Source: an uncultured Candidatus Saccharibacteria bacterium (GTDB lineage: Bacteria; Patescibacteriota; Minisyncoccia; Phycocordibacterales; Zambryskibacteraceae). From it: DNA of 64,000 nt. The position numbers and the translations under genes are program-made. Below the pieces are notes generated by a model. That model did not search any database and had not been told where the DNA came from. It worked only from the letters and a program-made list of their open reading frames with translations. Location: NCBI GenBank assembly GCA_964582295.1, contig CAZOQP010000001.1:9588-73587 (forward strand), in the 5' to 3' direction. Position 1 is the first letter of the stretch, and each line of letters opens with the position of its first letter. Positions 7,903 through 28,454 of the stretch are shown in pieces.

Positions 7903-7978
7903 ATTCTAAACCAAACTAAATCACTTGGCTTGCGCCAAGTGATTTAGTTTTCGAATAAACCCAAACAAGACGAGCTTA

Positions 7979-9759: not shown

Positions 9760-9760
9760 G

Positions 9761-11295: not shown

Positions 11296-11314
11296 TGTGT
11301 TGGAGTAGCACCGC

Positions 11315-13090: not shown

Positions 13091-13098
13091 AAGCTTGA

Positions 13099-13464
13099 TT
13101 ACTGGCTGGTAGTTGTCGCGGAAGTTCCGCTTCTCGGAGCCGTAGCAGGAGCACTTGTAACAGAGCCCACATCAACACCAATTCTTTCAAAAGGATTCGG
13201 GCGGCCGAGTGCTGGGGCAGGTAAATTAACAGACCAATCGGTGAGACTCATGAAAACTTCGTCGTTAAATATGTCGGTGGTAAGGTTTATAGATTTGAGA
13301 TCGGAAAGAAGCTGAAGAAGGTCACTCCCCACCGTTTGAGCACCGATAGCATTGCCGCTCTCATCAAAAAGGGGCTCTGGGGTTTTGGAGATAAGGAGGT
13401 AGGCCGCTCCTGCTATCACGAGTATCACCACCACCCAGCCAACCATTTTTGTGTTTATATGCAT
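13099..13464 (-). CDS. small single-TM protein, possible PilP-like pilus assembly component
   Basis: One hydrophobic helix followed by a Ser/Thr/Pro-rich tail. Start chosen at the internal ATG to avoid overlap with pilO. Function inferred from position only. Confidence 0.45.
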   Translation of the reverse strand: MHINTKMVGWVVVILVIAGAAYLLISKTPEPLFDESGNAIGAQTVGSDLLQLLSDLKSINLTTDIFNDEVFMSLTDWSVNLPAPALGRPNPFERIGVDVGSVTSAPATAPRSGTSATTTSQ

Positions 13465-13465
13465 A

Positions 13466-14011
13466 TTATTCAATCCAGTAAGTTTGTATGGTGACCTCAA
13501 ACTGATAATTGCTTGATTCGGCGCCAGTAGAGTTCATGGAAACAGCTTTCACATCTACGAGCTCCAGGCTTTTTTCCATATCCCGCAGGAAAGCTACAAA
13601 ATTTTGGTAAGTGGAGACAACTCCAAAAGAAAGAGTGCTGGTGCGATATCCTTTTTTAGGTTGGTTATTGATGGTTGCGCGGCTGTCGCTCGTCTCCTCC
13701 ACCATCTTTACTCCCCGCAAAGACATGCCATGCCTGCCCGCGACCGCATCAAGGTCGGTTATCAATTTCACACTGTTGAAACCTGTAGGCATCAACAGTT
13801 CCAGACGCGCACTTTCCTGGGGCGGCATACCGGAGAGCTGGCTTTCGAGCGAATCTCGGAGAGCTTTCACTTCTTCAATGTTGGCGAGCGCCATTTTATA
13901 ATCGCTCCTCTGCTGCATCAGGTCCCGGATGTTCATATAATGCGGATTGATATAAAGATAAAAAAGTCCGACAGCGATCGCGACGAGCAAGATTGGTACA
14001 AAAGGTTTCAT
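13466..14011 (-). CDS. pilO: PilO-like pilus assembly protein
   Basis: 181 aa with an N-terminal TM helix, a coiled-coil and a C-terminal globular domain. Position follows pilN. Confidence 0.6.
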   Translation of the reverse strand: MKPFVPILLVAIAVGLFYLYINPHYMNIRDLMQQRSDYKMALANIEEVKALRDSLESQLSGMPPQESARLELLMPTGFNSVKLITDLDAVAGRHGMSLRGVKMVEETSDSRATINNQPKKGYRTSTLSFGVVSTYQNFVAFLRDMEKSLELVDVKAVSMNSTGAESSNYQFEVTIQTYWIE

Positions 14012-14012
14012 T

Positions 14013-14630
14013 TTATTGTTGCGATGGGATTATCTTGGACGAATATGAAATGGCCTCGGGCAGAAGAACGGTTTTGAAAGAGAAAATGACGGCGCCCTGC
14101 CTGTCGAGGTCTAGGTCGAAAAAATTAGGGTCTTTGAAAGTGGTCTCCTTGTTGAAAACTTCCGCCTGCTGGGCGACTGACACATATCCGATCGCCTCAC
14201 CTTTCAGAAGCACCTCTATCCCCTTGCTTCCGAGGGTAGTGAAAGAGAAATTGCTGAAGCGCAGGCTTTTTACGGTAAGGGTCTGAAGTTTTTCAAAAAA
14301 AGCAGAGAGTGCCACATGCTCCGAAAGAAGAGATTTTACAGAAGTGATACGCTCGTGGGCGCGGGTAAGCTCTGCTATTCTTTCCGGCTCTATCTCCTCG
14401 CGGGCGGCAGCAAGCGAGGTGTCCATAGAAGCGATGGTGCGATTGAGGTACCACTCCACTCCGAAAATTATGAAAGAAGCCACCACAGCAATAGTGAAAA
14501 GGGTGTTCGCAATAAAGCTCCATATTCCACCCATTTCACGCGGGCCATGTGCCGAAACCATTTTGGGCGCATTTGGTGCGGAAACTACGGGGCTTTTTGG
14601 TATGAAAGATGTCTGAAACTTTGGTTCCAT
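14013..14630 (-). CDS. pilN: PilN-like fimbrial assembly protein
   Basis: 205 aa with a single TM helix after a short cytoplasmic N-terminus and a coiled-coil periplasmic region. Downstream of pilM. Confidence 0.65.
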   Translation of the reverse strand: MEPKFQTSFIPKSPVVSAPNAPKMVSAHGPREMGGIWSFIANTLFTIAVVASFIIFGVEWYLNRTIASMDTSLAAAREEIEPERIAELTRAHERITSVKSLLSEHVALSAFFEKLQTLTVKSLRFSNFSFTTLGSKGIEVLLKGEAIGYVSVAQQAEVFNKETTFKDPNFFDLDLDRQGAVIFSFKTVLLPEAISYSSKIIPSQQ

Positions 14631-14690
14631 CTCTAATTATTATACATCCTGCAAAGTCAATATCTCTTTCATTCTCCACAAGGGCGCTCA

Positions 14691-15038
14691 TTCAACAGCA
14701 TTTTTCAAATAGCAATCGTTCGGGAGTCCCACTAAAAGAGACCACTCCGGGGCGTTTGCCCAAGTCTTAGTCTCTTTTAGTGGGACTCCCTCACTCTAAA
14801 TAACTCCAATTTGAAAAATGCTGTTGGATTCGCTTTAAGTTCTAATATTTAAGGAGCGAAGATAATACCCTTTTTCACACACGCGGGAGGTGATTTTAGA
14901 AATCAAGGAGTTGAGTAGGAAAATGGGAGTGTTTGAGGAAGCCGAAGGCTGACGAGTTGCCCATTTTACGTTATGAGACGACTATGATTTCGTAAGCACC
15001 GGAGCGGCAGCTGTTTGAAAAAGGGTGTTATCTGAGTG
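14691..15038. repeat. composite structured intergenic repeat, copy 1 (long hairpin + ~165-nt conserved core)
   Basis: Shares the core TTTTTCACACACGCGGGAGGTG.TTTTAGAAATCAAGGAGTTGAGTAGGAAAATGGGAGTGTTTGAGG...GAGTTGCCCATTTT.CGTTATGAGACGACTATGATTTCGTAA.CACCGGAGCGGCAGCTGTTTGAAAAA with copies at 39196 and 43847. Preceded by a ~134-nt hairpin (14691-14824). Confidence 0.8.
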
Positions 15039-15043
15039 ACGTC

Positions 15044-16168
15044 TTATATTATCTCCCTCAACTTCCTCAACCCCAATCCGATAGCAACCGCAAATTCAGG
15101 TCCCGTATCTTTAAGAACGTTCTCCAAAAAGGCGGGTGTTTCGGTTTTTGAAAACGGGTCACTCATCTCTACGGGCGTTTCAAAGCTTTCCTGTGCAAGG
15201 GTTGCCAATCCTTTGAGTGCCGAGCCGCCTCCCACGAAAAGTATCTTCTTTAGGTTTTTATTGTATTTGCGCTCAAAGTTTAATATCACGCGATTGGCCT
15301 CGGCAAAAATATATTCAAGCGAAAGATGCACGATGTCTTTCATATCTTTGTCGCCGCTATCTGTGAGGCCGACACTTCTTTTCATAACCTCCGCCTGATC
15401 TATCGGAAGTCCCAAAGATTTTGCAATGGCGATAGTGATGTCGTGCGAGCCGCGGTTTATAGTGTGTGAAAGCCGCACAATGCCGCGCTCCACCACATAA
15501 AGCTTGGTTGAAGCGGCGCCCATATCAAATATCATCACAGGCGCGATGGTTTCATCTAACGCCGCACGCATGGTGGAGAAAATTTCTATTTCGTAGAAAG
15601 TTGCTGAAAGCCCTGATGCCTTCACGATAGCGTCATATTTCTGGAGCACTGCATTGTGAATGGCGACCAGGAGCACATCCAAAGTTTTCTCGCGCGGCTT
15701 TGCAAGCACGGGCCCGCCTTCCGGATTGTCTTCTATCTCCACGAAATCTTTCGGGATAAGAGACCAATCAAGAGAGACTTCGGACATGGGAAGAGGGATA
15801 TACTTGCGGGCTTCTATCGGGATAAGGTTCTGAAGCTCCTTGGGGCCAACCTCCGGCACTTCAATAAGGGACATCAAGCTTGAGGAGAAAGGGATGGCAA
15901 GAGCGCATGATTTAGTGGACACATTCACTTCCTTTTCCTTCAGAAGATCGTTCAGGGCCTCTATTATTTTCTCTTTAGGAAGATTGGTGGCTTGCCCCAC
16001 GCTTCCCCCTGCATATGGACCGAGCGCCAATTCCCCGTATGTCTCAAGCACAGCCGTCTCGCCTTTTTTGCGGAGTTGCACTATCTTTATAGCTGAAGAG
16101 CCAATATCAATGCCGAGGATACTCTTTTCCTCTTTTTGAAAAATGCGGGAGAATGAAGGGAACTGCAT
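15044..16168 (-). CDS. pilM: type IV pilus assembly ATPase-like protein PilM (actin/HSP70 fold)
   Basis: 374 aa. The N-terminus ILGIDIGSSAIKIVQL matches the actin-like ATPase fold. Confidence 0.9.
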   Translation of the reverse strand: MQFPSFSRIFQKEEKSILGIDIGSSAIKIVQLRKKGETAVLETYGELALGPYAGGSVGQATNLPKEKIIEALNDLLKEKEVNVSTKSCALAIPFSSSLMSLIEVPEVGPKELQNLIPIEARKYIPLPMSEVSLDWSLIPKDFVEIEDNPEGGPVLAKPREKTLDVLLVAIHNAVLQKYDAIVKASGLSATFYEIEIFSTMRAALDETIAPVMIFDMGAASTKLYVVERGIVRLSHTINRGSHDITIAIAKSLGLPIDQAEVMKRSVGLTDSGDKDMKDIVHLSLEYIFAEANRVILNFERKYNKNLKKILFVGGGSALKGLATLAQESFETPVEMSDPFSKTETPAFLENVLKDTGPEFAVAIGLGLRKLREII

Positions 16169-16192
16169 AGGAAGTACATTATATCATCAGCC

Positions 16193-16831
16193 ATGAAAAG
16201 CTTAATTGAAAAAATACTTTCACTCATTTTTCCGAAAGGAGCAGGGGTGGAGGAGCTTGAAAAACTTTCTGCATCCGAATTGGTGCGCCTTTTGCCGCCT
16301 GGGCGCCAGGAAAATGGCATTTCTCCCCTCTTCTTATATAAAGACAGGCGTGTGAAAGCACTGGTGCACGAGATAAAACAGAATGCAAATGAAGTGCTTG
16401 CAGGAAAAGTAGCGGAGTTGATGGCTGAAAAGGTGCTTGAGTTTTTTGAAGACTCGCTTGTTTTCGGCGAGCATAAAATAGCTCTGGTGCCTGTGCCCAC
16501 ATCCGGGAAAAGGCAGGGCTCGCGCGGCTACAATCCGGCAGAAATGCTTGCACAAAAAATGGCAGCCGTGCGCCCAGACATTTTTGAGTACGCCCCAATA
16601 CTGGTGAAGATACGCGAAACGGAAAGACAGGCAAAACTTCGCAGGAAAGAGCGACTTACAAATCTTGTGGGAGCATTCAGAGCCGAACCTTTCGGCACGC
16701 CGAAAGGTTCGGCCTCCCCCGCCCTCATTATTGACGACGTCTCCACTACAGGCGCCACCATAACTGAAGCCAAGCGCGCTCTAACAGATAAAAATATCAA
16801 CGTTCACGGCACATCCGTCATCGCACGCTAA
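16193..16831 (+). CDS. comF: ComF family protein (phosphoribosyltransferase domain)
   Basis: 212 aa with PRTase motif LIIDDVSTTGATI. Adjacent to the pilus/competence cluster. Confidence 0.8.
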   Translation: MKSLIEKILSLIFPKGAGVEELEKLSASELVRLLPPGRQENGISPLFLYKDRRVKALVHEIKQNANEVLAGKVAELMAEKVLEFFEDSLVFGEHKIALVPVPTSGKRQGSRGYNPAEMLAQKMAAVRPDIFEYAPILVKIRETERQAKLRRKERLTNLVGAFRAEPFGTPKGSASPALIIDDVSTTGATITEAKRALTDKNINVHGTSVIAR

Positions 16832-16850
16832 CTTTTTTACCTCTTACCTT

Positions 16851-17366
16851 TTACCTCACCTGCGCTGTCGCCAAAGTATCCCAAATAGCACGGCGGAGTA
16901 CGGTTTCCTGTTGTTGTGTTGAGCTATCCACGGAGCATGTCGCATCGCTCGGCTCAAATATCAGATAAAAATTTTCAAATATTTTCACTTGCGGAGGCAT
17001 ACCATCTTTCGTTTTGCTTCCTTCAAGAAGGGTTACCGTGTTCCATTCCCCATTCTCGCCATTCGGTTTTGAAAGTTCGGCTTTATCAATGCGGCGAAAT
17101 ACTCCGAGAGTGCACATGGGCTCGTTCGTCTCCGGATTTGCAATAGAAACCGAAAGCGAAGTGCCACCATTTGGAACATTCTGTCTTATATATGCGAGGC
17201 CGTTCAAAGCTTCAAGTGTCGGGATAATCACCCCGAGCGCCGCAAAGCCCCCCTCTGCATTCACCACTGCCGCCTCATTTCTCACACCACCCCTCCCCAC
17301 CAGCCAGATGACAAGGATGATAACCACAATGACCGCTACCGTACCTATAAGAGTTTTTTTCTCCAT
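16851..17366 (-). CDS. hypothetical membrane-anchored protein
   Basis: 171 aa with an N-terminal TM helix. No recognisable domain. Confidence 0.55.
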   Translation of the reverse strand: MEKKTLIGTVAVIVVIILVIWLVGRGGVRNEAAVVNAEGGFAALGVIIPTLEALNGLAYIRQNVPNGGTSLSVSIANPETNEPMCTLGVFRRIDKAELSKPNGENGEWNTVTLLEGSKTKDGMPPQVKIFENFYLIFEPSDATCSVDSSTQQQETVLRRAIWDTLATAQVR

Positions 17367-17494
17367 TTTTTAATAATTAAGGGATATATACCCCGTGAGA
17401 TATGAAATACGAAGTGTCAGGTATTGATCAAAATTGGTTATCTCACGGGGTATACCCGTTGAGACGTTTCGCCCTATAGCCGCTTACATACGAA

Positions 17495-17529
17495 AAGGCC
17501 GTAAGGAAGCTCTGCTTCCTTACGGCCTT
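17495..17529 (-). terminator. rho-independent terminator
   Basis: AAGGCCGTAAGGAAGC-tct-GCTTCCTTACGGCCTT followed by a T-tract on the minus strand, 3' of gene 17552..18265. Confidence 0.7.
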
Positions 17530-17551
17530 ATTTGTTCCAGAGCAAAATGTT

Positions 17552-18265
17552 TTATCTCTTGTAGTTCCCTGAGTAGTGAAAATTGTGGGAATACTCCCAC
17601 GCGACCCTTGCCTCCTCGAGCATCCGATTGGCGTTCTTCGGGTAGTCCATCCACTGCCCGATAGCGGTGTCGTATTGACCTGTGTACCTGAATACCGCCG
17701 CAGCAAGTGCCTGCCTGAACCCTGCCGCTTCTTCTGCACCTCTCGGAGACAAAAGCTCATCTATCACGGATTCATAATCCCCAGGGCTACAGACCGCCCA
17801 CACATGGGGCCAATTCTTTGCCGCCGCCCGAAGAAGTGTCGGGCCGCCGATATCTATCTGTTCAATGCTGGGATTTCCTGCAAAATCATAAAGATTGCAG
17901 ACCACCAGGTCTATCATCTTCATGGAATGTTCCCAAGCCGCTTCCATATGCTCCACATTGGAGCGATCAGGAAGTATACCGCCGTGGATTTTATGGTGAA
18001 GCGTCTTCAAACGTCCTCCCATCATTTCAGGTAAACCCGTCACCTCTTCAATGGGAGTGTGCGGAATTCCATACTTCTCAAGCTCCCTCGCTGTGCCTCC
18101 GGTTGAGATGATTTCCCACCGGCCGATGTCTGTCAGAGCTTCGAACTTATCCAGTCCCCTTTTGTTGGTAACGGAGATAAGCGCCCGACGCCGTTCAATC
18201 GGTTCGTTCATTATCTGCCTCGCAAGTGTATTGTTAGGAAGCCACAGGTGCGGCTCCAAGAACAT
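17552..18265 (-). CDS. stand-alone IMP cyclohydrolase (PurH N-terminal MGS-like domain only)
   Basis: 237 aa matching the PurH IMPCH domain (ALISVTNKRGL...STGGTA...GGRLKTLHHKIHGGIL...NLYDF...IDIGGPTLLRAAAKN). No AICAR transformylase domain; a terminator follows. Confidence 0.75.
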   Translation of the reverse strand: MFLEPHLWLPNNTLARQIMNEPIERRRALISVTNKRGLDKFEALTDIGRWEIISTGGTARELEKYGIPHTPIEEVTGLPEMMGGRLKTLHHKIHGGILPDRSNVEHMEAAWEHSMKMIDLVVCNLYDFAGNPSIEQIDIGGPTLLRAAAKNWPHVWAVCSPGDYESVIDELLSPRGAEEAAGFRQALAAAVFRYTGQYDTAIGQWMDYPKNANRMLEEARVAWEYSHNFHYSGNYKR

Positions 18266-18300
18266 CCAGCCGCTACACTACTCGCCCCACCGAAACAGTC

Positions 18301-18333
18301 AAATACCCGCGAGAAAATCTCTCGCGGGTATTT
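18301..18333 (-). terminator. hairpin terminator
   Basis: AAATACCCGCGAGA-aaat-CTCTCGCGGGTATTT, 3' of ORF 18356..18622. Confidence 0.55.
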
Positions 18334-18355
18334 TAAAGCCAGAAAACTGCTACGG

Positions 18356-18622
18356 TCAGATAGATCCTCGAGAGTCCCAAGCACCTACACTCACTACGCG
18401 ATTCTGTTCCTGATAAGCATCCATCTTTTCACGTACTTGGTCCCAAGACGGCGCAATTACGGTATAGATTGGATTACCATCCGGCAAATCGCATTCTTCG
18501 GGATCCTCTAACTTATCCCACACCTCGGTGTAGACTCCAGTACTGTCTTCGACAATCGGTCCCGAAACCTTATACAGCCGACACCGATGATTTTGAATAC
18601 CAACCACGGCATTGTCCTGCAT
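18356..18622 (-). CDS. hypothetical small acidic protein
   Basis: 88-aa ORF downstream of the AbrB/MazE-like gene. No recognised domain. Confidence 0.45.
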   Translation of the reverse strand: MQDNAVVGIQNHRCRLYKVSGPIVEDSTGVYTEVWDKLEDPEECDLPDGNPIYTVIAPSWDQVREKMDAYQEQNRVVSVGAWDSRGSI

Positions 18623-18694
18623 GATGTCGCCTCTCCGATGAATGAGGTAAAGATCGTTCCTGCCCGCAATAATACCTTATTACGATAGATATTA

Positions 18695-18883
18695 TTATTT
18701 CTTCCTTTTCTTAGTACGAGCGTCGCGGATGATGAGTGCCCCGCCCGATTTCCTCACCTTCACCCTCTGCCTCTCCCTCCAGCCAAGGCTCTTAACCAAG
18801 TCGGCAGGCAAAGTAAGTCCAAGACTGGCCCGCCCCATCCTCGTCAGCTTCCTTGTATTTGTTTCTGTAGATTTCTTAGCCAT
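18695..18883 (-). CDS. AbrB/MazE/SpoVT-family DNA-binding protein (antitoxin-like)
   Basis: 62 aa. RMGRASLGLTLPADLVKSLGW...VKVRKSGGALIIRD matches a swapped-hairpin AbrB-type domain with a basic C-tail. Confidence 0.75.
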   Translation of the reverse strand: MAKKSTETNTRKLTRMGRASLGLTLPADLVKSLGWRERQRVKVRKSGGALIIRDARTKKRKK

Positions 18884-18915
18884 GTACGTACATATGTAAG
18901 TAGATATGTACGTAC
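18884..18915. promoter_or_regulatory. 12-bp inverted repeat GTACGTACATAT-N8-ATATGTACGTAC abutting the start codon of the AbrB-like gene (candidate operator)
   Basis: Perfect inverted repeat immediately 5' of the start codon at 18883. Confidence 0.5.
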
Positions 18916-18964
18916 ATTGTACATCAAACCTAATTTCATTCGAGTGATTACTTTAACAAAATGC

Positions 18965-19402
18965 TCATTTCTTATATAAAACAAAGAACGGTATTTCATC
19001 GATTCTTATATAGTTGAACATTTTATAATTTGCACGTCTAGCTGTTGAGGATAATTGACGCATTTTTAAATTTATTTTTGGAATAAAAGGATAGAATCTG
19101 ATTTCATGGTGTTTCTCCTTTTTATTTTTATCATCCCATTTAAAATTAGTTATAAGCGGCGGAACCATATAGCCTGATTTCATTACTTTTGAAATAATCT
19201 CCCACCCAGCACCAAAAATTATTGGCTTCGGTTTACTATTGTTTGTTTTTACTTGTGCACGAAAAAGGCATGCCTTACATTGAATATCATATAAGGGGTA
19301 ATTCTTGGGAAGCGCCATAAGTTTCTTTCCACAGTTAGGGCACGGAACAAGTTCTACAACCTCCAATTCTCCTGCATCCCCCGAATCCTTATTTTTACTC
19401 AT
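18965..19402 (-). CDS. DpnI-like PD-(D/E)XK nuclease catalytic domain (no winged-helix domain)
   Basis: 145 aa. PCPNCGKK...YDIQCKACLFRAQVK...GAGWEII...SSTARRANY parallels DpnI motifs (CPNCG, D..EFELK, APTARRAGW). QVK stands in place of ELK. Confidence 0.55.
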   Translation of the reverse strand: MSKNKDSGDAGELEVVELVPCPNCGKKLMALPKNYPLYDIQCKACLFRAQVKTNNSKPKPIIFGAGWEIISKVMKSGYMVPPLITNFKWDDKNKKEKHHEIRFYPFIPKINLKMRQLSSTARRANYKMFNYIRIDEIPFFVLYKK

Positions 19403-19467
19403 ACGAGCATTAGATCATCCAAGGTTTTATAACACAAGACTAGAAAATATTCCTAAATTAAAAATCT

Positions 19468-20205
19468 TTATTTTTGAGCAGCTATCATATCTTTAAGTTT
19501 TTCAATTGAAAGAATAATTGCCTTTTTTCGATGGATGATTCTGTGACAATTTGAGCATACGGGAACAACATTTTTCAGTGCATCCATGATTGACTGTTCA
19601 AGATTATCTTCATACGCAAAAATTGGTTTTAGATGATGAATTTCAATGAATCCTTTACCAGCAAGGCCATAGAACTCTTCAAAATTGAAATTGCAAGCTT
19701 CGCAATAAATTTTATTGTGCTTTTTGAAATGTTCTTTCGCAATCTCAATTAACTTCTTCGATCGAAATCTTGTTTTTACATGGTTAGATCTAATGAAACC
19801 TTCTTCAATAATTAGGTTAACGAAATTTTGATCAATAACTTTTTCTCTATCATTTTCAGAAAAACCATTAGTTTCTATGAAGTCAAAGCCGTCAATGTTG
19901 TCAGAAATATATTTTTTACCTAAGTCAGTTATTTTAAGTAACCCTTTATTTTTACTAATTGTATCGTAGGTTGCTAAACCTTTTTTAAATATACTTCTTT
20001 GGGAAATACCTCTATGAGAAATTATATTTCTTACTTTTTGACTAAAGCGAGTATCCTTGCGATTAGCACTCAGCTCAAGATCTTTCCCTTCTGGTTTTAA
20101 AGTTTCTGTTAGATAAATAATCAGGTTTGATGTCAAAATTCCATCCTCTTTTGACGAAAGATAGACTAACGTGGGCATTATTAAATCACTCTCACTGTAA
20201 ATCAT
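19468..20205 (-). CDS. winged-helix + HNH endonuclease
   Basis: 245 aa. The C-terminus CEACNFNF...IEIHHLKP...VCSNCHRIIH is an HNH domain. The N-terminal region resembles the DpnI C-terminal winged helix. Confidence 0.75.
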   Translation of the reverse strand: MIYSESDLIMPTLVYLSSKEDGILTSNLIIYLTETLKPEGKDLELSANRKDTRFSQKVRNIISHRGISQRSIFKKGLATYDTISKNKGLLKITDLGKKYISDNIDGFDFIETNGFSENDREKVIDQNFVNLIIEEGFIRSNHVKTRFRSKKLIEIAKEHFKKHNKIYCEACNFNFEEFYGLAGKGFIEIHHLKPIFAYEDNLEQSIMDALKNVVPVCSNCHRIIHRKKAIILSIEKLKDMIAAQK

Positions 20206-20207
20206 AT

Positions 20208-21455
20208 TTAGAAGTTATAAATTATAAGATGTTCAACCTCCCTATCATTACGACCTTTTATATTGTACAAATAAGTTTTATCGAAAGTCTTAATTTTAAT
20301 ATTTAACCTGTTTTTATATAAACCTAAAATAAATGGGGTTTTTTTGATTATCAGGATAAATTTTGCTTTTGTTTTATATAAGCAATTAGCTAATCTTTTC
20401 TGATCATTCTTATCAAAAGATTGTTTTTCGTAATCACTAAAATCTGTATCGTATGGTGGATCTAGAAAGATAAAATCTTTTGGTGATAAATCTGTTTTTT
20501 TAATTATCTCTTCAAAATCTACATTTTTAATAGAAGTATTTTTAAAAATTCTTTCTATATTCTCACTTAATATATAGTCAACTTTTTTACGAAAATCTTT
20601 TGAATTATAAGCTATGCCTCCGTAAGGAATATTAAAATGACCCTTGGAATTAAACCTAAACATTGAACCATAGCAAAATTCTCTTACAAAATAATAATTT
20701 GCAATCTTTTTTGATAAAGAAGTCGGATATCTATTTCCATTAAAATTCATCACATCCCTAAAGTGCATGTAGAAACCACTTCTAAACGCTGTTTCAATAT
20801 TCATACGTAGATCTCTGTCATCTATATTCCCTCGCTTTATTTCGATTTCCTTCACCCTCCCAAGTTTAGATATTAGGTTAGAAATGATTTGTTTTAATAG
20901 GTTCTGGTCATCAAGACAAAAACTTTTATGGAATAGTCCATTAAATTTCTTCTCCTCAGCTTTTAGGTAATTATTTACAATATTTTTTAAATTCTCCTTG
21001 GTGATTTTGTCTTTTTTGAAATCAGAATATAATTTTATTAATTTGTCCTCAAAAATATCAATATACTTTGGTATTTTTTCCCAATTATCAACGTAATCAT
21101 AAATTTCTTTTTTAAATTCTTTTTTATTTTTTTCTCCTTTTATAAATTTATAGAAAAAAACTAATTCTTCGCAGATATCGCTTACCACTGCTTCTTTGGG
21201 CTGCAATCTCAAAAAAACTGCACCGCCACCAAAAAATGGTTCTATATATCTATCAAAATCTGGGATTAAATGTTGTATGTATTTAAACTCTTCTGACTTA
21301 CCCCCCGGCCATTTAATAAGAGGCCTGGCATACACGGACTGATTTCCCAAGATGTCACCGCCATTAAAAAACCTAGATTCTTGTAGTACACTCCGATGCT
21401 TTTTATATGATGACAACGTACTCTTTTTTTTAGACCCAAAAAGAATTATCCCCAT
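20208..21455 (-). CDS. Dam-family (D12 class) N6-adenine DNA methyltransferase
   Basis: 415 aa with KWPGGK...EPFFGGGAV (AdoMet binding) and DPPY catalytic motif (FLDPPYDTDF). Confidence 0.85.
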   Translation of the reverse strand: MGIILFGSKKKSTLSSYKKHRSVLQESRFFNGGDILGNQSVYARPLIKWPGGKSEEFKYIQHLIPDFDRYIEPFFGGGAVFLRLQPKEAVVSDICEELVFFYKFIKGEKNKKEFKKEIYDYVDNWEKIPKYIDIFEDKLIKLYSDFKKDKITKENLKNIVNNYLKAEEKKFNGLFHKSFCLDDQNLLKQIISNLISKLGRVKEIEIKRGNIDDRDLRMNIETAFRSGFYMHFRDVMNFNGNRYPTSLSKKIANYYFVREFCYGSMFRFNSKGHFNIPYGGIAYNSKDFRKKVDYILSENIERIFKNTSIKNVDFEEIIKKTDLSPKDFIFLDPPYDTDFSDYEKQSFDKNDQKRLANCLYKTKAKFILIIKKTPFILGLYKNRLNIKIKTFDKTYLYNIKGRNDREVEHLIIYNF

Positions 21456-21542: not shown

Positions 21543-21995
21543 TTGGGAATTACAACCACATATCGACTCTATGTATACAACATTATTGGTCGTCGTGGGG
21601 ATATTGTTCCGATATTAGAACCTAAAATGCAGCTCAAATTCGAGAATCTTGATAAAAGTAAACAGAAATTAAGAGCTATCTACAAAGTTCACTCAGATTG
21701 GTTTGAGGTGCTTCAACCCAAGCCTACTAAGAGTAGGAATAATGTGGATTATTCCATCCAACTCAAAAGACTCCAGCTGCAACCTGGAAGATGGCCGCGT
21801 ATGAATAAAGATTACCTTTGTTCTCCCTATCAAAATCCGCTGAAGGGTTGTTACTGCCGAAGAGATGAGGACGCTGAGGAGTGCGAAGACGAGCCAATTC
21901 ATGAGTTAATTATAGCCCTCCTTGGAGATATTCGAGAAATTCACATGGCAGTAAAGATTAGCTGCTATAATATTAACTGTGACAACATCCCATGA
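21543..21995 (+). CDS. hypothetical Cys-rich protein
   Basis: 150-aa ORF in the AT-rich island, overlapping the start of the next gene by 4 nt. No recognised domain. Confidence 0.45.
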   Translation: MGITTTYRLYVYNIIGRRGDIVPILEPKMQLKFENLDKSKQKLRAIYKVHSDWFEVLQPKPTKSRNNVDYSIQLKRLQLQPGRWPRMNKDYLCSPYQNPLKGCYCRRDEDAEECEDEPIHELIIALLGDIREIHMAVKISCYNINCDNIP

Positions 21996-22627
21996 TCATG
22001 CATAAATTAAATTCAAAAAATAAATATGCATTCACGACTGATAAGCTAATCCGCCAAGAACTGAAGAAAACGATTGAAAAGAGATATAAGGACGCGCCTG
22101 TGAGAATTATCGAGGAGTTTGGTTTAGATGATCATGCTACGCGAATTGATATTGCTGTAGTAAATGGAATTTTACATGGTTATGAAATCAAGAGTGACTT
22201 GGATACACTAGGGAGGTTGCCGAAGCAAATGAGTTCTTATAACTCTATTTTCGACCAAATAACTTTGGTTGTTGGAACCCAGCATCTTTATGATGCTTTC
22301 AATATTGTGCCAGACCATTGGGGCATCATGGTCGCTAAGATAGATGGAAAAGGCTCTGTATATTTCAATCACATACGGACAGCCTCTGAGAATACCTCCC
22401 AAGAGAAACTTCCAATAGCAAGACTTCTGTGGAGAGATGAAGCCATCCATTTACTTGAAGATATTGGTTGCGCGCGAGGATATAAGAGTAAGTCAAAAGA
22501 TTTAATTCATAGCAGAATTTCTGATCTTCTTGATCTGAATACTCTCAAAGAAAGAGTGCGCGAGACGCTACTTCTTTCTAGGACTGATTGGAGAGCTGGG
22601 ACAGTACCAGTGCTATATGGTGACTAA
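21992..22627 (+). CDS. sce7726-family-like protein with PD-(D/E)XK nuclease motif
   Basis: 211 aa. RIDIAVVNGILHGYEIKSDLDTLGRLPKQ fits a D-x12-E-I-K restriction-endonuclease-like core. Family resemblance is from memory. Confidence 0.55.
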   Translation: MIMHKLNSKNKYAFTTDKLIRQELKKTIEKRYKDAPVRIIEEFGLDDHATRIDIAVVNGILHGYEIKSDLDTLGRLPKQMSSYNSIFDQITLVVGTQHLYDAFNIVPDHWGIMVAKIDGKGSVYFNHIRTASENTSQEKLPIARLLWRDEAIHLLEDIGCARGYKSKSKDLIHSRISDLLDLNTLKERVRETLLLSRTDWRAGTVPVLYGD

Positions 22628-23759
22628 TCCCTGCTGAGATCCAGTAGGTTGCTGCACCAGTTCCCTTACCTTTATTTTTTTCATCTTTCTTAACAAGTTC
22701 CATATAGGCAGGAAAATAATCTGACTTTTCTTTTATGCGCCTGTCGCCTTCGCTGAAAGCTTCCCCATAAAAGAAGGTACTATCATTCACGAGTTGTTGC
22801 GCATGTGCCAGATACTGATCGTTTCTCTTCTTCTCGCCTCTAAATATTATCCAGTTATTCTCGTGAGTGTATTTCAGCGTTGCAGACGCTTGCATGTATC
22901 GCAGTGCCTCGCTATGCATTGGATAGCGTATCGTATAATCTCCAAAAATTGGTTCTCGCACGAGTTTCCTGCCTTTTTTTGCAGCTAACCATAACTGCCA
23001 GTCATTGCGCGCCTCCATGCATGGACTATCTTCCACTTTGAGATGCCCGACATTCACAGGAAATGATCCGCTAGCAAAGATGACTGCTCTCCAAGCACTT
23101 AGGTTATGAATTTCCTGCACGTTTGAGAACAATTCTGCATATGACGCTTTTGTAGCATCATCGAGATATTTAATATCTAGGAGTAAATCTATTTGGTTTT
23201 CTTTGATGCCGGTCTCAACAACAAAGCTTCTCAATTTTGAGTTCAGATCATCAACCTTTTTCAAATCTGATAGCGTAACTCGTATGCAGATACCAACGAT
23301 AGTGCCTTTCTTGAACTGCTGCACAATTTCGTTCGCAACTTCCTTATCATCGTTTAAGTAGACTACAGGTCTTATATCTACTCCTTTTGCGTGACAAGTT
23401 TCAGCAACCTTTTGGACGCTCTCGACCTTGAGATTTGTTGTTCCAGCTCCATCGTGGATAAGATTGAAATCAATGGTTGCGCTTAGCTTGCCACGGCATT
23501 TTTCAATCTCATCCGGAATTTCCTTCAGACGAAAGTTTTTATACTTCTGAACCACCTCGTTATGTATCTCTTCTTCCGATTTACGAACTCTGGTCTTCTT
23601 ACCTTCAATAACAACAGTTTTATCCTGTGAAACACCGGGTAATACAATTTCAAGAACAGGGAGCAGATTGGCTCTATCTTTTTCAGGAACATTCGTCAAA
23701 GCCGCGATCTCAGCAGCTCGCCATTTAAGAATTGGGCTGTATAAGTAATTTTCTTTCAT
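22578..23759 (-). CDS. sce7725-family-like (beta-protein-like) partner protein
   Basis: 393 aa. N-terminus YSPILKWRAAEIAALTNV...LPVLEIV. Convergent with, and overlapping, the sce7726-like gene. Assignment tentative. Confidence 0.5.
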   Translation of the reverse strand: MKENYLYSPILKWRAAEIAALTNVPEKDRANLLPVLEIVLPGVSQDKTVVIEGKKTRVRKSEEEIHNEVVQKYKNFRLKEIPDEIEKCRGKLSATIDFNLIHDGAGTTNLKVESVQKVAETCHAKGVDIRPVVYLNDDKEVANEIVQQFKKGTIVGICIRVTLSDLKKVDDLNSKLRSFVVETGIKENQIDLLLDIKYLDDATKASYAELFSNVQEIHNLSAWRAVIFASGSFPVNVGHLKVEDSPCMEARNDWQLWLAAKKGRKLVREPIFGDYTIRYPMHSEALRYMQASATLKYTHENNWIIFRGEKKRNDQYLAHAQQLVNDSTFFYGEAFSEGDRRIKEKSDYFPAYMELVKKDEKNKGKGTGAATYWISAGISHHIALVLSQLSNQS

Positions 23760-23764
23760 ATCAG

Positions 23765-24997
23765 TTAAGCTGAATTAAATTCAGGAAAATACTTACGAAC
23801 TTTCGCTTCGCCAACTACTTTGCTCAGACGTTTGAAATCTCTTTCAAACCGCATTCTTCCCGCGATGATAGCAACATGTACACCCAATTCCTTTGCCAAA
23901 GATGTTGCGGCAGTCTTGGATGGAATTAGTTTTGCGGGGCTAATTTCCCATTTCTCCGTAGGAACAAGTGCTTCACCGGCCAAGCTATCTGCTTCGTGCT
24001 CCATTACTCCAATATCTCTACCTTTGATTTCATCGAGTTCGTCATAAAACAACTCACTATCGTTGTTCATGTGAAGTGCAACATGAGCCAACTCGTGCAT
24101 GAGCGTAAACCAGAAGTTATCTATACGGTCGTACCTAAGTGTCAGCCCTATTATAGGATTGTCTTTATTAAGGAAGATTGCCGCTCCGTCAAGTTTCGTT
24201 TTTTTAAACTGTTTTTCAATAACCAAAATAATTCCGTTATCTAGGAGAAACTTTTGCGCCAGAATCGGCGCACCGTCCTTAACACTTAGCTTGGCGAGAT
24301 CTTTCATGAAGTTGAGATTTACCGTGCTAGATTTATATTTCTTCTGTACTTTAACTTTTTGCGCTTTATAGAGGACGCAACCAAGCCACGCCGCGAGAGC
24401 TTGTTTATTTGTTGTTGGAGAAGTTCGGTAGTTTGTTTGTCTAAGCAAAGCACCAAAGTTCAGACTTGCATGATTAAGTGGTGAGAAAAATCTAGAGACT
24501 ACAGCCATTCGACTATCTTCTTTGGGACTGGTATCGTTGAGATACCCACGACTTTTTATTTCCTTGATGACGTCTAGGTGTATGTTTTCAAAGAGATCTT
24601 CTGTCTCTTCTGCAGGCTGTATAAGCACCTTAGCAGGTATACTTAGTTCTTTTTCAAGAGTACGGATCATTTTAAGAGTTAGAGGCGTTTTTCCAGAAAA
24701 TACTTCTGACACCTTACTCTTGCTGCCAATGTAGTGAACCATGTCAGAATCTTTGAGACCCATTTGTTCCATTCTGAACTTGATAGCCTCGACAGGATCA
24801 GGGAGAGAAGAAGGAAAATGGCTCTTTTCATAATCCTCAATCAAGGTGGCTAGCAGGTGGAGTTTGTCTGCTTCAGCAGAACCATTTTTTGGATTCATCA
24901 AAATTAGGCTCTCAAGTATTGCAAGAGCTTCCTTGTGATCTGCTTCTGTTTTAATTATTTTTATTTCCATAAAATTAAGTGATTTTCCACTTTTCAT
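23765..24997 (-). CDS. HigA-like XRE-HTH antitoxin fused to ImmA/IrrE-family Zn-metallopeptidase
   Basis: 410 aa with an N-terminal HTH and a C-terminal HEXXH (HELAHVALH) COG2856-type domain. Confidence 0.75.
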   Translation of the reverse strand: MKSGKSLNFMEIKIIKTEADHKEALAILESLILMNPKNGSAEADKLHLLATLIEDYEKSHFPSSLPDPVEAIKFRMEQMGLKDSDMVHYIGSKSKVSEVFSGKTPLTLKMIRTLEKELSIPAKVLIQPAEETEDLFENIHLDVIKEIKSRGYLNDTSPKEDSRMAVVSRFFSPLNHASLNFGALLRQTNYRTSPTTNKQALAAWLGCVLYKAQKVKVQKKYKSSTVNLNFMKDLAKLSVKDGAPILAQKFLLDNGIILVIEKQFKKTKLDGAAIFLNKDNPIIGLTLRYDRIDNFWFTLMHELAHVALHMNNDSELFYDELDEIKGRDIGVMEHEADSLAGEALVPTEKWEISPAKLIPSKTAATSLAKELGVHVAIIAGRMRFERDFKRLSKVVGEAKVRKYFPEFNSA

Positions 24998-25262
24998 ATT
25001 CAGTGTGAGTGCCGATTTTCTTGACCAAAACCATCTGATTTTCGTAATCGATAATCACCCACAGCCGGTACCTGTTGCCACATATGTTAAATATCGTGCT
25101 CTTGTTTCCCACGGAGTCTGCAGTCGGGAATTTCTGCTTCAGTTCGTGAGGGGTCTTCCATGAGGCATCCTCGATTTCGCTCTCCCAGCTTTCGATCTTG
25201 CTCTTTGCGTCTGTATGCTGCCGTTTGAAGTCGTGCAGGGGTTGCTTACCTAGTAATATCAT
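24975..25262 (-). CDS. higB: HigB-family type II toxin (RelE/ParE superfamily)
   Basis: 95 aa. IFNICGNRYRLWVIIDYENQMVLVKKIGTHTEYEK matches the HigB signature. Sits upstream of, and overlaps, the HTH gene as in higBA. Confidence 0.8.
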   Translation of the reverse strand: MILLGKQPLHDFKRQHTDAKSKIESWESEIEDASWKTPHELKQKFPTADSVGNKSTIFNICGNRYRLWVIIDYENQMVLVKKIGTHTEYEKWKIT

Positions 25263-25448: not shown

Positions 25449-25617
25449 CAGGCGGAGGGGATGGGAATTTCACTGCTCGCCCCTCGGCAAGCTCGGGGCT
25501 GCGCTTTAAAACCTGCGGGTTTTAAAGTTTCCACCACGGGAAACTCCCGTTTCCCGACCTCATCGAGTCTGAGGACTCTCAGAGTCTAAACGACCCTTCC
25601 CCGGTTCAAATCCCATC
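25449..25617. repeat. hairpin-rich element built from inverted partial copies of the tRNA-Ser 3' end
   Basis: GGCGGAGGGGATGGGAATTT (5' end) and GGTTCAAATCCCATCCCC (3' end) are inverted and direct near-copies of the tRNA-Ser T-arm/acceptor. Internal perfect hairpins: CTTTAAAACC-tgcg-GGTTTTAAAG, GGGAAAC-tccc-GTTTCCC, GAGTCTGAGGACTC. Confidence 0.6.
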
Positions 25618-25663
25618 CCCATAAACAATTTTAAAATATCAAAAGATATTGAAAATTGTCTTG

Positions 25664-25752
25664 CGGAGGGGATGGGATTTGAACCCATGCGGGATGTATT
25701 AGACCCCGACGGTTTAGCAAACCGTTCCGTTAGACCGCTCCGGCACCCCTCC
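25664..25752 (-). tRNA. tRNA-Ser (anticodon GCU), class II with long variable arm, CCA not encoded
   Basis: The reverse complement reads GGAGGGGTGCCGGAGCGGTCTAACGGAACGGTTTGCTAAACCGT CGGGGTCTAATACATCCCGCATGGGTTCAAATCCCATCCCCTCCG. Anticodon loop UUGCUAA. Confidence 0.85.
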
Positions 25753-25828: not shown

Positions 25829-25876
25829 CCCACAATCTATTCCAGTATTCTCAAGAATACTGGAATAGATTGTGGG
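25829..25876. promoter_or_regulatory. 48-bp palindrome (22-bp perfect stems, loop TCAA) upstream of the ArsR-family regulator
   Basis: CCACAATCTATTCCAGTATTC-tcaa-GAATACTGGAATAGATTGTGG, about 55 bp upstream of the regulator start. Confidence 0.5.
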
Positions 25877-25930: not shown

Positions 25931-26200
25931 ATGAAAAATTTTAGACAACTCGAGCGATTGGTAAAAGGATTCGCCAATCACCGTAGAATCGAGATCCTCA
26001 ATCTTCTCGATAAGACTCCGGAACTTTCAGTATTTGAGGTTGCCGAAAGATTGAAGATCAACTTCAAGACTGCTTCAGAACACATCCTCCGTCTTGCTAT
26101 CGCCGGCCTGGTGGTGAAAAGAAACGAAGGAAATAACGTGCGACATGCACTTACCAACACCGGAAAATCTATTCTCAAATTCTTGAGAAGACTAGAATAG
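25931..26200 (+). CDS. ArsR/SmtB-family winged-helix transcriptional regulator
   Basis: Start set at the internal ATG (MKNFRQLERLVKGFANHRRIEILNLL...VFEVAERL...RHAL). The track ORF 25754..26200 runs through the upstream palindrome. Confidence 0.7.
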   Translation: MKNFRQLERLVKGFANHRRIEILNLLDKTPELSVFEVAERLKINFKTASEHILRLAIAGLVVKRNEGNNVRHALTNTGKSILKFLRRLE

Positions 26201-26253: not shown

Positions 26254-28380
26254 ATGCTTGATGAACTCTTTCGACTGAATCCGGCTCAGAAATCCGCCCT
26301 GAAAAAACTGGGTATCACTTCCGTTGAATCTCTCCTTTACCATATCCCCACGCGCTACGCTTCTTTTGATGGGAATAATTCCATAGCGAGCGCGCGGGCA
26401 GGAGAAGATATCGCGCTCATAGTAAACATAGAAAAAATAGAGACCAAAAAAGGATTCCGCTCAAAAATACCAATGGCAACAGGGCGCGTATCAGACCCCA
26501 CAGGGAAAATGGACGTAGTGTGGCTTCGCCAGCCGTACATTGCACGCATGTATCTTGCCGGTTCCACCATAAAAATCTCTGGCAAAGTTTCGGAAAGGAA
26601 CGGAAAGATCTCAATGGTGAACCCTAAAGTGCATCCGCTCACAGGAGAAGAGAACACTCCAATCTTTAGCGGCAAAGAAGGAGAAAGTTTGACTCCTGTA
26701 TATGCGGAAAGCCGCGGAGTGACAAGCGAATGGCTGCGGAATGCGGCTATTCGTCTCATAAAAAACAAACTGCATGAAGCTATAGAAGATCCAATACCGC
26801 CGGAAATGCTTTCTCGTTTTAATCTGCCTACTTTGAAAACCGCTTTTGTGTGGGCGCACATGCCGAAAAAACACGAGCACGCAGAAGCCGCTCGCAAGCG
26901 CTTTGCATTTGAAGAAGTTTTTTTCATACAGTTGGAAAAGCAGAAAGAGCGTGCGGAATGGCAAGCCCATCAGGCATTCGTTATTGAACCGGCAGAAGAA
27001 ACAGAAAGATTCATGGAATCGTTCCCCTACTCGCTCACGGCGGGACAGAAAAAAGCTATTGCGGATATTTTCGGGGATTTTGGCTCGGGTCGGCCGATGG
27101 CGCGGCTTCTTGAAGGCGACGTCGGCTCCGGCAAGACGGCCGTGGCGGCCGCCACGGCCTACGCCACTATCCGCACCCGGCCCAAAGGGCAAACTTTCGG
27201 AGCGCTTCAGGTGGCATACATGGCGCCCACAGAAATACTGGCATCCCAGCATTTTGAATCCTTCATACAATATTTTGTGGGTTCAGGAATTCAGATAGGC
27301 CTCATTACCGGTTCCGGCTGCAGAAAATTCCCGTCCAAAATAAAACGAGACGGCTGGACGGATATTTCCAGAACACAATTATTGAAATGGGTTGAGAACG
27401 GAGAAATACCAATTCTCATAGGTACGCATGCGCTCATACAAAAATCCGTGAAATTCAAACACTTGGCATATGCTGTGGTGGACGAGCAGCACCGCTTCGG
27501 CACGCGCCAGCGCGCGGCCTTGATACAAAAAGACGGCCGCGCGCCGCATCTTCTCTCCATGACAGCCACCCCTATTCCCCGCACATTGGCTCTCACGGTG
27601 TTTGGCGATCTTGATCTCACAGTGTTAGACGAAATGCCGCCGGGACGCAAACCAATAATGACCAAAATAGTGCCGCCGGATCAAAGATTTCATGCATATG
27701 AAGAAGTACGAAAGGAATTGACAGCGGGCAGGCAGGCGTATGTAATCTGCCCGCGTATAGACGAGCCGGATCCGGACAAGGAAATGGCAGTGCAGGCAAA
27801 ATCGGTGAAAGAAGAAGCGGCACGCCTCAAGAAAGAAGTTTTTCCTGAATACGAGATAGGAATTTTGCACAGCAAGATGAAGCCCTCGGAAAAAGATGAA
27901 GTAATGAAAGAATTTTCGGAAGGGCGCATACATATTTTGGTCGCAACATCGGTTGTGGAAGTGGGAGTGAACGTTCCGAATGCCACGTCTATCATCATTG
28001 AAGGTGCAGAAAGGTTCGGCCTGGCACAGCTTCATCAGCTGCGCGGACGTGTGGTGAGAAGCACTCATCAATCACGCTGTTTCGTGTTCTCTGAAGGAAC
28101 GAGTGAAAATACTTTTAGACGTCTGAAATCTTTTGAAAAAGCCAAAAATGGTTTTGAATTGGCTGAATTTGACCTGGAAACACGCGGTGCGGGAGACCTT
28201 GCAGGCGACAAGCAGTGGGGAGTTACCGACCTCGGTATGGAAGCCCTTAAAAATATAAAGATGGTTGAAGCGGCACGGAACGAAGCCAAAACCATAATTG
28301 AAAGCGATCCGGAGCTTTCAAAACATCCATCTCTCCAATCTCACCTGTCCGGACGCCGAACTAAAATTCATTTGGAATAG
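26254..28380 (+). CDS. recG: ATP-dependent DNA helicase RecG
   Basis: 708 aa with wedge domain, Walker A GDVGSGKT, DEQH box and a C-terminal helicase domain. Confidence 0.93.
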   Translation: MLDELFRLNPAQKSALKKLGITSVESLLYHIPTRYASFDGNNSIASARAGEDIALIVNIEKIETKKGFRSKIPMATGRVSDPTGKMDVVWLRQPYIARMYLAGSTIKISGKVSERNGKISMVNPKVHPLTGEENTPIFSGKEGESLTPVYAESRGVTSEWLRNAAIRLIKNKLHEAIEDPIPPEMLSRFNLPTLKTAFVWAHMPKKHEHAEAARKRFAFEEVFFIQLEKQKERAEWQAHQAFVIEPAEETERFMESFPYSLTAGQKKAIADIFGDFGSGRPMARLLEGDVGSGKTAVAAATAYATIRTRPKGQTFGALQVAYMAPTEILASQHFESFIQYFVGSGIQIGLITGSGCRKFPSKIKRDGWTDISRTQLLKWVENGEIPILIGTHALIQKSVKFKHLAYAVVDEQHRFGTRQRAALIQKDGRAPHLLSMTATPIPRTLALTVFGDLDLTVLDEMPPGRKPIMTKIVPPDQRFHAYEEVRKELTAGRQAYVICPRIDEPDPDKEMAVQAKSVKEEAARLKKEVFPEYEIGILHSKMKPSEKDEVMKEFSEGRIHILVATSVVEVGVNVPNATSIIIEGAERFGLAQLHQLRGRVVRSTHQSRCFVFSEGTSENTFRRLKSFEKAKNGFELAEFDLETRGAGDLAGDKQWGVTDLGMEALKNIKMVEAARNEAKTIIESDPELSKHPSLQSHLSGRRTKIHLE

Positions 28381-28454
28381 TCCGCCCGCTTGGACTTGAA
28401 CCAAGGACCCTCGAGGTATAAGCTCGATGCTCTAACCAACTGAGCTACGGGCGG
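28381..28454 (-). tRNA. tRNA-Ile (anticodon UAU), CCA not encoded
   Basis: Canonical cloverleaf: CCGCCCG-TA-GCTC-AGTTGGTTA-GAGC-A-TCGAG-CTTATAC-CTCGA-GGGTC-CTTGG-TTCAAGT-CCAAG-CGGGCGG-A. Anticodon positions 34-36 are UAU. Confidence 0.8.

Follow-up and report, generated by a model that had tools for sequence, protein, structure and literature searches.

How can a nuclease of the DpnI kind, whose namesake acts on Gm6ATC, be encoded next to a methyltransferase of the Dam family? The question is raised by a stretch of 64,000 nucleotides (nt), hereafter the window, from contig CAZOQP010000001.1 (assembly GCA_964582295.1) of an uncultured Candidatus Saccharibacteria bacterium. Three consecutive genes lie there on the minus strand (Table 1); they encode a predicted D12-class (Dam-family) DNA methyltransferase, a protein joining a winged helix to an HNH nuclease domain (wH-HNH), and a 145-amino acid (aa) protein which resembles the catalytic domain of DpnI. 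An earlier note, made from the sequence by itself, had placed the three open reading frames (ORFs) exactly where they are found, had regarded the company of a DpnI-like nuclease and a Dam-family methyltransferase as paradoxical, and had proposed, among other solutions, a split and domain-shuffled restriction system of a new type. The puzzle does need explaining, and the combination recurs elsewhere. Here, I argue for a two-module solution, with a probability of about 60%: the methyltransferase and the wH-HNH protein would form a Type II restriction-modification (R-M) pair, next to which sits a separate, mobile gene for a minimal DpnI-like nuclease (mini-DpnI). I infer the enzymatic activities of all three proteins, as well as their target sites, from sequence.

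A DpnI catalytic domain standing by itself

The 145-aa protein matches the Pfam family DpnI (PF06044) with 41.9 bits (cutoff 26.7; E = 1.1e-10), and a profile built on its own family finds DpnI in the Protein Data Bank (PDB; 4esj, E = 5e-15), with QVK aligned to the ELK of DpnI and D39 aligned to D53. Likewise, DpnI (4kyw_A) is the top Foldseek match of its AlphaFold2 model (pLDDT 94), with E = 2.9e-7 and TMq 0.71. CPNCG, TARRA and QVK are all found in the translation. The earlier note had described a PD-(D/E)XK catalytic domain of DpnI with QVK in place of ELK and without a winged helix, and had named profile homology to DpnI as the test of that description; Pfam, profile and fold comparisons all agree with it.

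The likeness to R.DpnI and to Neisseria Drg (PF06044, Type IIM, Gm6ATC) extends from the PD-(D/E)XK fold to single residues. In an alignment read against the published work on DpnI, E12, D39 and K52 are the equivalents of the catalytic E25, D53 and K66 of DpnI, and a Cys4 zinc site (C21, C24, C42 and C45) flanks the PD aspartate at the same positions as in DpnI, whereas Q50 replaces E64 (PMC3424567, PMC4117772). Among the residues that read the target, the equivalents of N48, which contacts the G, and of L129 and R135, which line the methyl cleft, are kept; in contrast, M stands for both R126 and G140, and N77/D78 are not kept (PMC4117772). W138 is changed to Y, an aromatic residue that occurs at this position in Neisseria homologs of DpnI and keeps partial activity in DpnI itself (PMC4117772). 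A further difference is one of size, 145 aa against the 254 aa of R.DpnI: the protein ends 7 residues past the match to the catalytic domain, and the C-terminal winged helix is absent. Since the isolated catalytic domain of DpnI cuts Dam-methylated, and not unmethylated, DNA (PMC3424567), a homolog devoid of the winged helix can in principle be a complete modification-dependent enzyme.

Homologs of the 145-aa protein number 1,406 in a large protein collection. The 120 that were listed are 142-154 aa long and 72-100% identical, and all but 2 of these close homologs carry Q-[VI]-K at the site; Q is therefore a fixed feature of the family and not a mark of decay. Whether the D, Q and K residues are conserved had been left as a question by the earlier note. 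Across 44 diverse homologs C21, C24 and C45 are invariant and G8, P22, D39, C42, Q50, K52 and a few others nearly so; in addition, E12 and the four cysteines are invariant in 18 close homologs. With such conservation, an inactive remnant of DpnI, another of the solutions put forward, is unlikely, also because Mrr and MspJI, both modification-dependent, are described as having PD-QxK sites, and the latter enzyme cleaves in vitro (PMC12707154; see also PMC11037411). The likeness to the catalytic domains of Mrr and MspJI lies in this Q-for-E variant of the active site in enzymes acting on methylated DNA: a relationship at the level of sequence family was not detected, the Pfam match being to DpnI and not to Mrr_cat, and those enzymes possess a reader domain (winged helix or SRA), whereas the 145-aa protein has none.

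Clustering at 50% leaves 130 representatives of the DpnI-like family, very few of them longer, and all but a few members measure 142-155 aa. Truncation of a DpnI gene at the island edge was also considered as the origin of the 145-aa ORF, and is ruled out by the uniform length of its homologs, about 143 aa. Rare relatives (P0248, P0352) are fused at the C-terminus to HARE-HTH, a Pfam domain that owes its name to being found in restriction endonucleases. Distant relatives of about 205 aa were seen as well (P0326, P0350, P0361 and P0370); P0326 matches the FtsK-gamma domain, the others have a similar C-terminal sequence, and, by reading of the sequences, the D..QxK motif is missing from them.

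The 145-aa protein is thus most likely an autonomous, probably modification-dependent PD-QxK mini-nuclease. It would act by itself as a small restriction nuclease, probably dependent on base modification like the isolated catalytic domain of DpnI, and its specificity would have to be compatible with the methylation made by the neighbouring methyltransferase. No paper describing the family was found in a literature search, and database annotation goes no further than 'DpnI domain-containing protein' or hypothetical. The family is best called a variant of the DpnI kind, one that lacks two of the features defining DpnI, namely the glutamate of ExK and the winged helix.

A conserved pair of methyltransferase and wH-HNH protein

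The 415-aa protein passes the cutoffs of both NCBIfam dam (TIGR00571; 159.2 bits against 114.85) and Pfam MethyltransfD12 (PF02086; 113.5 bits against 22, E = 1.7e-32), and FFGGG and DPPY are both found in its translation, so that the D12-class m6A methyltransferase with DPPY and FxGGG motifs stands as it had been proposed. It is the sole ORF of at least 180 aa with a (D/N/S)PP(Y/F/W) motif in the 64-kb window. Its closest solved relative is DpnM (PDB 2dpm, E = 2.4e-22), compared with which some 100 residues are added in the DNA-binding region, from motif I to the Dam beta-hairpin. The hairpin, YGSMFRFN..GHFNIPYGGI, is conserved across 50 homologs (family of ~373-415 aa). As homologs mostly measure 373-403 aa, the true start of the methyltransferase may lie some 40 codons downstream.

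As for the 245-aa protein, the C-terminal HNH nuclease had been rightly recognised: Pfam HNH is matched above its cutoff (22.7 bits against 21.4), an McrA-like HNH structure is matched in the PDB (6ghc), and C168, C171, H190, H191, C217, N219, C220, H221 and H225 (CxxC...HH...CxNCH...H) are invariant in 37 homologs. For the N-terminus, the proposed likeness to the C-terminal winged helix of DpnI was not confirmed. Mrr_N (PF14338) is matched by 27 of the 37 family members (best E = 1e-7), and DpnI_C by none of the 37 among the families listed; DpnI is not among the top 50-60 structural matches; and the helix FSQKVRN bears a loose resemblance to E228-K-I-R-Q of DpnI (residue numbers after PMC3424567). 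Judged by these matches, the winged helix appears to be of the Mrr_N type and not of the DpnI_C type.

The pairing of the two genes is conserved. At all five distinct places of HNH homologs that were looked up, one archaeal contig included, a D12 methyltransferase of 373-403 aa adjoins. When the profile of the HNH family was used to recover 80 metagenome loci, a homologous D12 methyltransferase was present in 60, being directly upstream on the same strand in 55 (mostly 0-63 nt away) and convergent and overlapping in 5, while a further 8 have an N6_N4 methyltransferase homolog only. Most of the 12 loci in which no methyltransferase was detected have less than 700 nt of upstream sequence; an Eco57I-type methylase occurs in 2 of the 12 and an N6_N4 methylase in 1. 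The identities of the HNH and methyltransferase homologs to the window proteins co-vary (r = 0.81, n = 45), which indicates that the two genes have been inherited together over a long time. The pair is also carried by the temperate Monoglobales phage PV036456.1 (L141, 4001-6748), in which the wH-HNH gene, a 223-aa ORF of no stated family, a convergent D12 methyltransferase gene and a gene for a 75-aa C-protein-like helix-turn-helix (HTH) protein lie near the phage integrase, in a stretch of 8.7 kb with 7 GATC sites against 27 expected. HHPV4 was not among the phage matches.

According to Helbrecht et al. 2024, winged-helix nucleases that stand alone are modification-dependent and those linked to a methyltransferase are not (PMC11037411); by that rule, the linkage found here points to conventional Type II R-M, with the HNH protein as the restriction enzyme. 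Catalytic motifs are intact in both proteins, and the pair looks like a co-inherited, conventional Type II module. The methyltransferase would methylate adenine within a short target in the host DNA, and the wH-HNH enzyme would cut that target wherever incoming DNA carries it unmethylated, its Mrr_N-type winged helix being predicted to supply sequence recognition and its zinc-finger HNH domain to make the cut.

Among known systems, those of the NlaIII type (CATG) comprise an HNH endonuclease of about 230 aa and a D12-class (alpha) m6A methyltransferase. By this description, they resemble the present pair in combining an HNH restriction enzyme of small size with a methyltransferase of the alpha class. 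The pair joins a known class, that of Type II systems with an HNH nuclease and an alpha-class methyltransferase. Cassettes of the DpnII, MboI and LlaDCHI type consist of a D12 methyltransferase, with or without a second methyltransferase of the beta class, plus an endonuclease. The kinship with DpnM links the present methyltransferase to them, and its relatives in the Candidate Phyla Radiation (CPR) have a D12 methyltransferase, an N6_N4 methyltransferase and a nuclease in one operon, an arrangement which resembles dpnM-dpnA-dpnB. The present pair differs from such cassettes in its nuclease, which is of the wH-HNH and not of the DpnII family, and in its methyltransferase, by the extra residues mentioned above and by changed target contacts (see below).

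A mobile gene in many restriction operons

The DpnI-like gene is independent of the HNH/methyltransferase pair, and mobile. In none of 48 reference-genome loci that carry it was a wH-HNH gene or a close relative of the D12 methyltransferase found. It usually lies in these loci less than 30 nt behind its upstream neighbour and on the same strand, the neighbours being type I HsdR (7 loci, sometimes with a YgjP-like gene), HsdS (2 loci), type III Res with Mod (2 loci), fusions of LexA, S24 and C5 methyltransferase, an NPPF methyltransferase with a DUF262-HNH protein (2 loci), an OLD-like ATPase and, among housekeeping genes, ArgRS, AspRS, AsnB and RluA. In two loci (L002, 4280-5872; L003, 3829-5412) the fusion is a 527-530-aa protein made of a LexA DNA-binding domain, a self-cleaving S24 peptidase and a C5 DNA methyltransferase, adjoining a Bsp6I-like or PDDEXK nuclease and the DpnI-like gene; it may represent SOS-linked control of R-M.

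Among species-representative genomes, copies with 53-85% identity occur in contigs labelled as Paceibacteria, Saccharibacteria, Magasanikbacteria, Moraniibacteria, Micrarchaeota, Iainarchaeum, Nitrososphaerota and some Proteobacteria, with the proviso that some of the taxon labels, coming from metagenome-assembled genomes, may be unreliable. In contrast with R.DpnI, it occurs in CPR and DPANN lineages and is encoded beside methyltransferases instead of replacing dam. Its GC content (mean 0.355) is below that of the flanks (0.407) and correlated with it (r = 0.68). Two scans of 2.9 million viral contigs gave no relatives.

The trio of methyltransferase, wH-HNH and DpnI-like genes, or a superset of it, was met in at least five other independent loci (L006/L007, L010, L062/L138, L065 and L080). 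The DpnI-like gene takes three places in them: between the methyltransferase and HNH genes (L006/L007, L062/L138), after the HNH gene (L080, as in the window) or after a second methyltransferase gene (L010, L065). The operon-resident copies likewise fall in three lineages at three positions, and that of the window shares 83-85% identity with L013-L016, copies from unrelated surroundings, but only 56-67% with the other operon-resident ones. L006 and L008 differ by exactly one ORF, which is present or absent at the junction of methyltransferase stop and HNH start and is set off by a spacer of 3 nt on either side. The association has thus arisen repeatedly, which fits a small gene lodging in R-M operons or defence islands, and not a subunit of this system. 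The uniform family of ~143 aa, the lack of the pair in all 48 loci, the Mrr_N-type winged helix and the three lineages at three positions together speak against the split, domain-shuffled system of a new type that had been imagined. Many copies close unrelated R-M operons (type I, II or III) at the 3' end; the gene would tend to settle there or within restriction operons of many kinds, and this tendency would be the reason for its presence at the locus.

An operon with a nested layout was observed in CPR contigs (L006, 2604-6514; also L008, L061, L064 and L065): a TdeIII/HinfI-like endonuclease, a D12 methyltransferase, optionally the DpnI-like protein, the wH-HNH protein and an N6_N4 methyltransferase are encoded by four or five genes with gaps of 3-4 nt, and two R-M systems appear to be interleaved.

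Weighing the alternatives

Several findings weigh against the two-module reading. A methyltransferase making Gm6ATC and a Gm6ATC-dependent mini-DpnI in one operon would be lethal to their host. In 15 of the 43 pair-carrying contigs (each of at least 5 kb), GATC occurs at less than 0.4 of its Markov expectation. About half of the closest CPR relatives of the HNH/methyltransferase module also carry the DpnI-like gene, an association stronger than pure independence predicts. Moreover, the Type IV enzyme Mrr has a winged helix of the same type as the wH-HNH protein, whose architecture and size (245 aa, within a range of 224-283 aa) are those of wH-HNH, N6mA-dependent Type IV endonucleases that are toxic to Dam+ E. 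coli (PMC11037411). As to the conflict, the recurrence of the combination implies that at least one of the two GATC assumptions is wrong. As to the resemblance, the wH-HNH protein could itself be a modification-dependent Type IV enzyme like the haloarchaeal ones, the methyltransferase not being its protective partner; its distant relatives adjoin Eco57I-type methylases, a pairing also noted for the published enzymes (PMC11037411). Yet the latter mostly stand alone (87% lack a methyltransferase neighbour), whereas the family studied here is paired almost universally, and at tight spacing, with one co-evolving family of D12 methyltransferases, a linkage that speaks against modification dependence by the rule of the same authors (PMC11037411). 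The phage copy, in addition, is organised with a C-protein-like gene. A Type IV wH-HNH enzyme is, on this balance, very unlikely. Compared by description with the published enzymes, the protein differs also in a winged helix that matches Mrr_N, with no DpnI_C among the families listed.

Other explanations concern the DpnI-like gene. Were the three proteins a single integrated system, the DpnI-like and wH-HNH proteins would form a heteromeric enzyme or two nickases, with the winged helix provided in trans and the methyltransferase as shared protector. The genes are indeed co-oriented, without terminator-like sites between them, and of similarly low GC content, and the trio recurs in the loci named above; but the DpnI-like gene is missing from most HNH/methyltransferase loci, the HNH gene is missing from 48 of 48 reference DpnI-like loci, the operon-resident copies are polyphyletic and variably placed, and the winged helix of DpnI, when given in trans, inhibits cleavage by the catalytic domain instead of helping it (PMC3424567), all of which leaves little room for such a system. 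That the 145-aa protein is a catalytically dead, DNA-binding reader of methylation, acting as regulator or sensor on restriction operons, would agree with the Q that all examined family members have where DpnI has its metal-binding E64, with the position of the gene at operon ends in tight coupling to upstream R-M genes, and with degenerate relatives fused to FtsK-gamma DNA-binding domains. It is quite unlikely nonetheless: E12, D39 and K52 are conserved as much as Q50, as befits a working active site, PD-QxK is described for Mrr and for MspJI, which cleaves in vitro (PMC12707154), and the specificities of the neighbours are unrelated (type I, C5, N6), so that a site-specific regulator is hard to picture. 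A selfish ORF resembling a homing endonuclease, with a nuclease that promotes its own spread into gene junctions and no role in defence, would account for identities of 53-85% across contigs whose labels span several phyla and both domains of prokaryotes, for a GC content systematically under that of the flanks, for the precise, ORF-sized presence and absence between neighbouring genes, and for sites directly downstream of aminoacyl-tRNA synthetase and other housekeeping genes; however, neither flanking repeats nor a common target sequence were seen, viral contigs gave no relatives, and the enrichment beside R-M genes fits defence islands, which makes the odds of this explanation low. In a bolder version of the autonomous nuclease, the DpnI-core proteins of ~143 aa would be a distinct and widespread group of minimal PD-QxK restriction nucleases, either with a specificity other than Gm6ATC, such as a different methylated context, or tied to the methylation made by the R-M operon in which they reside, as a methylation-checking or back-up nuclease compatible with a Dam-family methyltransferase of the GATC type, and the recurrent pairing with Dam-like enzymes would then reflect functional coupling and not chance insertion; this too is held to be unlikely.

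The target of the methyltransferase

Returning to the two-module reading, much depends on what the methyltransferase recognises. The residues by which EcoDam contacts GATC have known roles (PMC4417163). Relative to EcoDam, the equivalents of K9, Y119, R124 and P134 are retained, which together with the kinship to DpnM may point to GATC; pointing away from it, N120 is changed to G, L122 to M and Y138 to I, R137 is changed too, and the extra residues lie upstream of the hairpin. GATC is the most depleted 4-bp palindrome in 10 of the pair-carrying contigs, and extreme cases are L011 (0 observed against 30 expected), L130 (0 against 21) and L077 (1 against 20). The depletion is restricted to low-GC contigs, which avoid other palindromes too, and is not seen in carriers with a GC content of 0.5; a lineage effect may lie behind it. 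Among close CPR relatives and in the host of the window, GATC is only weakly depleted (~0.73-0.76 of expectation), with 143 sites in 57 kb of window host sequence. Depletion of CATG is less consistent than that of GATC in the pair-carrying contigs. As a means of finding the target site, palindrome depletion was not decisive, GATC being strikingly depleted in some carriers and not in others, nor in the window host.

For the methyltransferase, GATC or a site containing GAT/ATC is a fair guess, GATC itself being plausible at roughly even odds. If the target is GATC, the specificity of the mini-nuclease must differ or be otherwise non-conflicting, and this would be the more interesting outcome. 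Outside the island (1-18900 and 25801-64000), other sites are more depleted than GATC, namely TCGA (68 against 141 expected), CTNAG (60 against 117) and AGNCT (76 against 140), which hints at other restriction pressures.

Significance

For the catalogue of Type II systems, the pair of methyltransferase and wH-HNH enzyme is a routine entry. The mini-DpnI family, in turn, has more than 1,000 members, most of them in CPR bacteria and DPANN archaea, which are little studied. Provided that it is active, the family would offer a DpnI-type nuclease of ~143 aa without a reader domain, hence a candidate compact reagent for methylated DNA, as well as a natural test of how much of the methyl specificity of DpnI sits in the catalytic core alone. 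Its coexistence with a Dam-family methyltransferase offers a case for how modification-dependent and modification-generating enzymes avoid genetic conflict.

Layout of the locus and the surrounding island

Table 1. Features of the R-M locus and of the neighbouring defence genes (window positions; functions predicted)
Feature	Position	Strand	Remarks
D12-class (Dam-family) N6-adenine DNA methyltransferase	20208..21455	-	415 aa; Pfam PF02086, NCBIfam TIGR00571, PDB DpnM 2dpm
wH-HNH endonuclease, probable restriction enzyme	19468..20205	-	winged helix ~residues 1-112 (19870-20205); zinc-finger HNH 168-226 (19528-19704)
AT-rich 65-nt spacer, HNH stop to DpnI-like start	19403..19467	-	
Stand-alone DpnI-catalytic-domain mini-nuclease	18965..19402	-	145 aa; D39-K52 = 19247-19288; without winged helix
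Edge of low-GC block	18877..18964	.	GC climbs from 0.28 to ~0.5 within 100 nt
HigB-like toxin of PD-Lambda-2-like set	24975-25262	-	
HTH plus M78-peptidase protein	23765-24997	-	PADLOC PD-Lambda-2_B, E = 4.8e-135
Beta_protein	22578-23759	-	PADLOC PD-Lambda-2_C, E = 8e-37

The methyltransferase and wH-HNH genes are separated by 2 nt, the wH-HNH and DpnI-like genes by 65 nt. As no terminator-like site was found between the three genes, I infer that their co-transcription is plausible; promoter-like matches are no more frequent there than in shuffled controls. The three genes have GC contents of 0.283, 0.306 and 0.338, against 0.48-0.52 in the genes to their left, and the jump is located within ~100 nt of the point where the 145-aa gene stops. 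On the other side, the island runs on at a GC content of ~0.39-0.46, with other defence genes, as far as a tRNA-Ser gene (25663-25752). On the two-module reading, both modules were acquired horizontally and are probably co-transcribed.

Flanking repeats and att sites were sought around the three genes, and the sole find was an 18-nt copy of the tRNA-Ser 3' end near the far end of the island. The tRNA, tRNA-Ser(GCT), bounds the low-GC island, and the copy (17 of 18 nt), at 25452-25469 and thus 211 nt inside the island, looks like a remnant of an att site; no integrase was seen in the island. At the opposite edge, palindromic ATGTACGTACAT repeats (18877-18917) lie exactly at the GC boundary, directly upstream of a host ORF for a MazE/AbrB-like protein of 62 aa (18695-18883); these repeats may represent an operator or a scar left by recombination.

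Between the R-M genes and the tRNA-Ser, the island holds a set of three genes on the minus strand (22578-25262) which resembles the anti-phage system PD-Lambda-2. A gene for an sce7726-family protein (21992-22627, plus strand; NCBIfam E = 4.6e-46; 'cll' in PADLOC) lies between this set and the R-M genes, and is preceded by an ORF of 150 aa (21543-21995, plus strand) without a family match. Just past the tRNA-Ser, a perfect hairpin with arms of 23 nt occurs at 25829-25876, with a related second copy 330 nt off, at 26158-26200. Further along the window, a tRNA-Ile gene with the unusual anticodon TAT is found at 28380-28454, and the start of the window (48-280) carries two tRNA-Met genes in divergent orientation.

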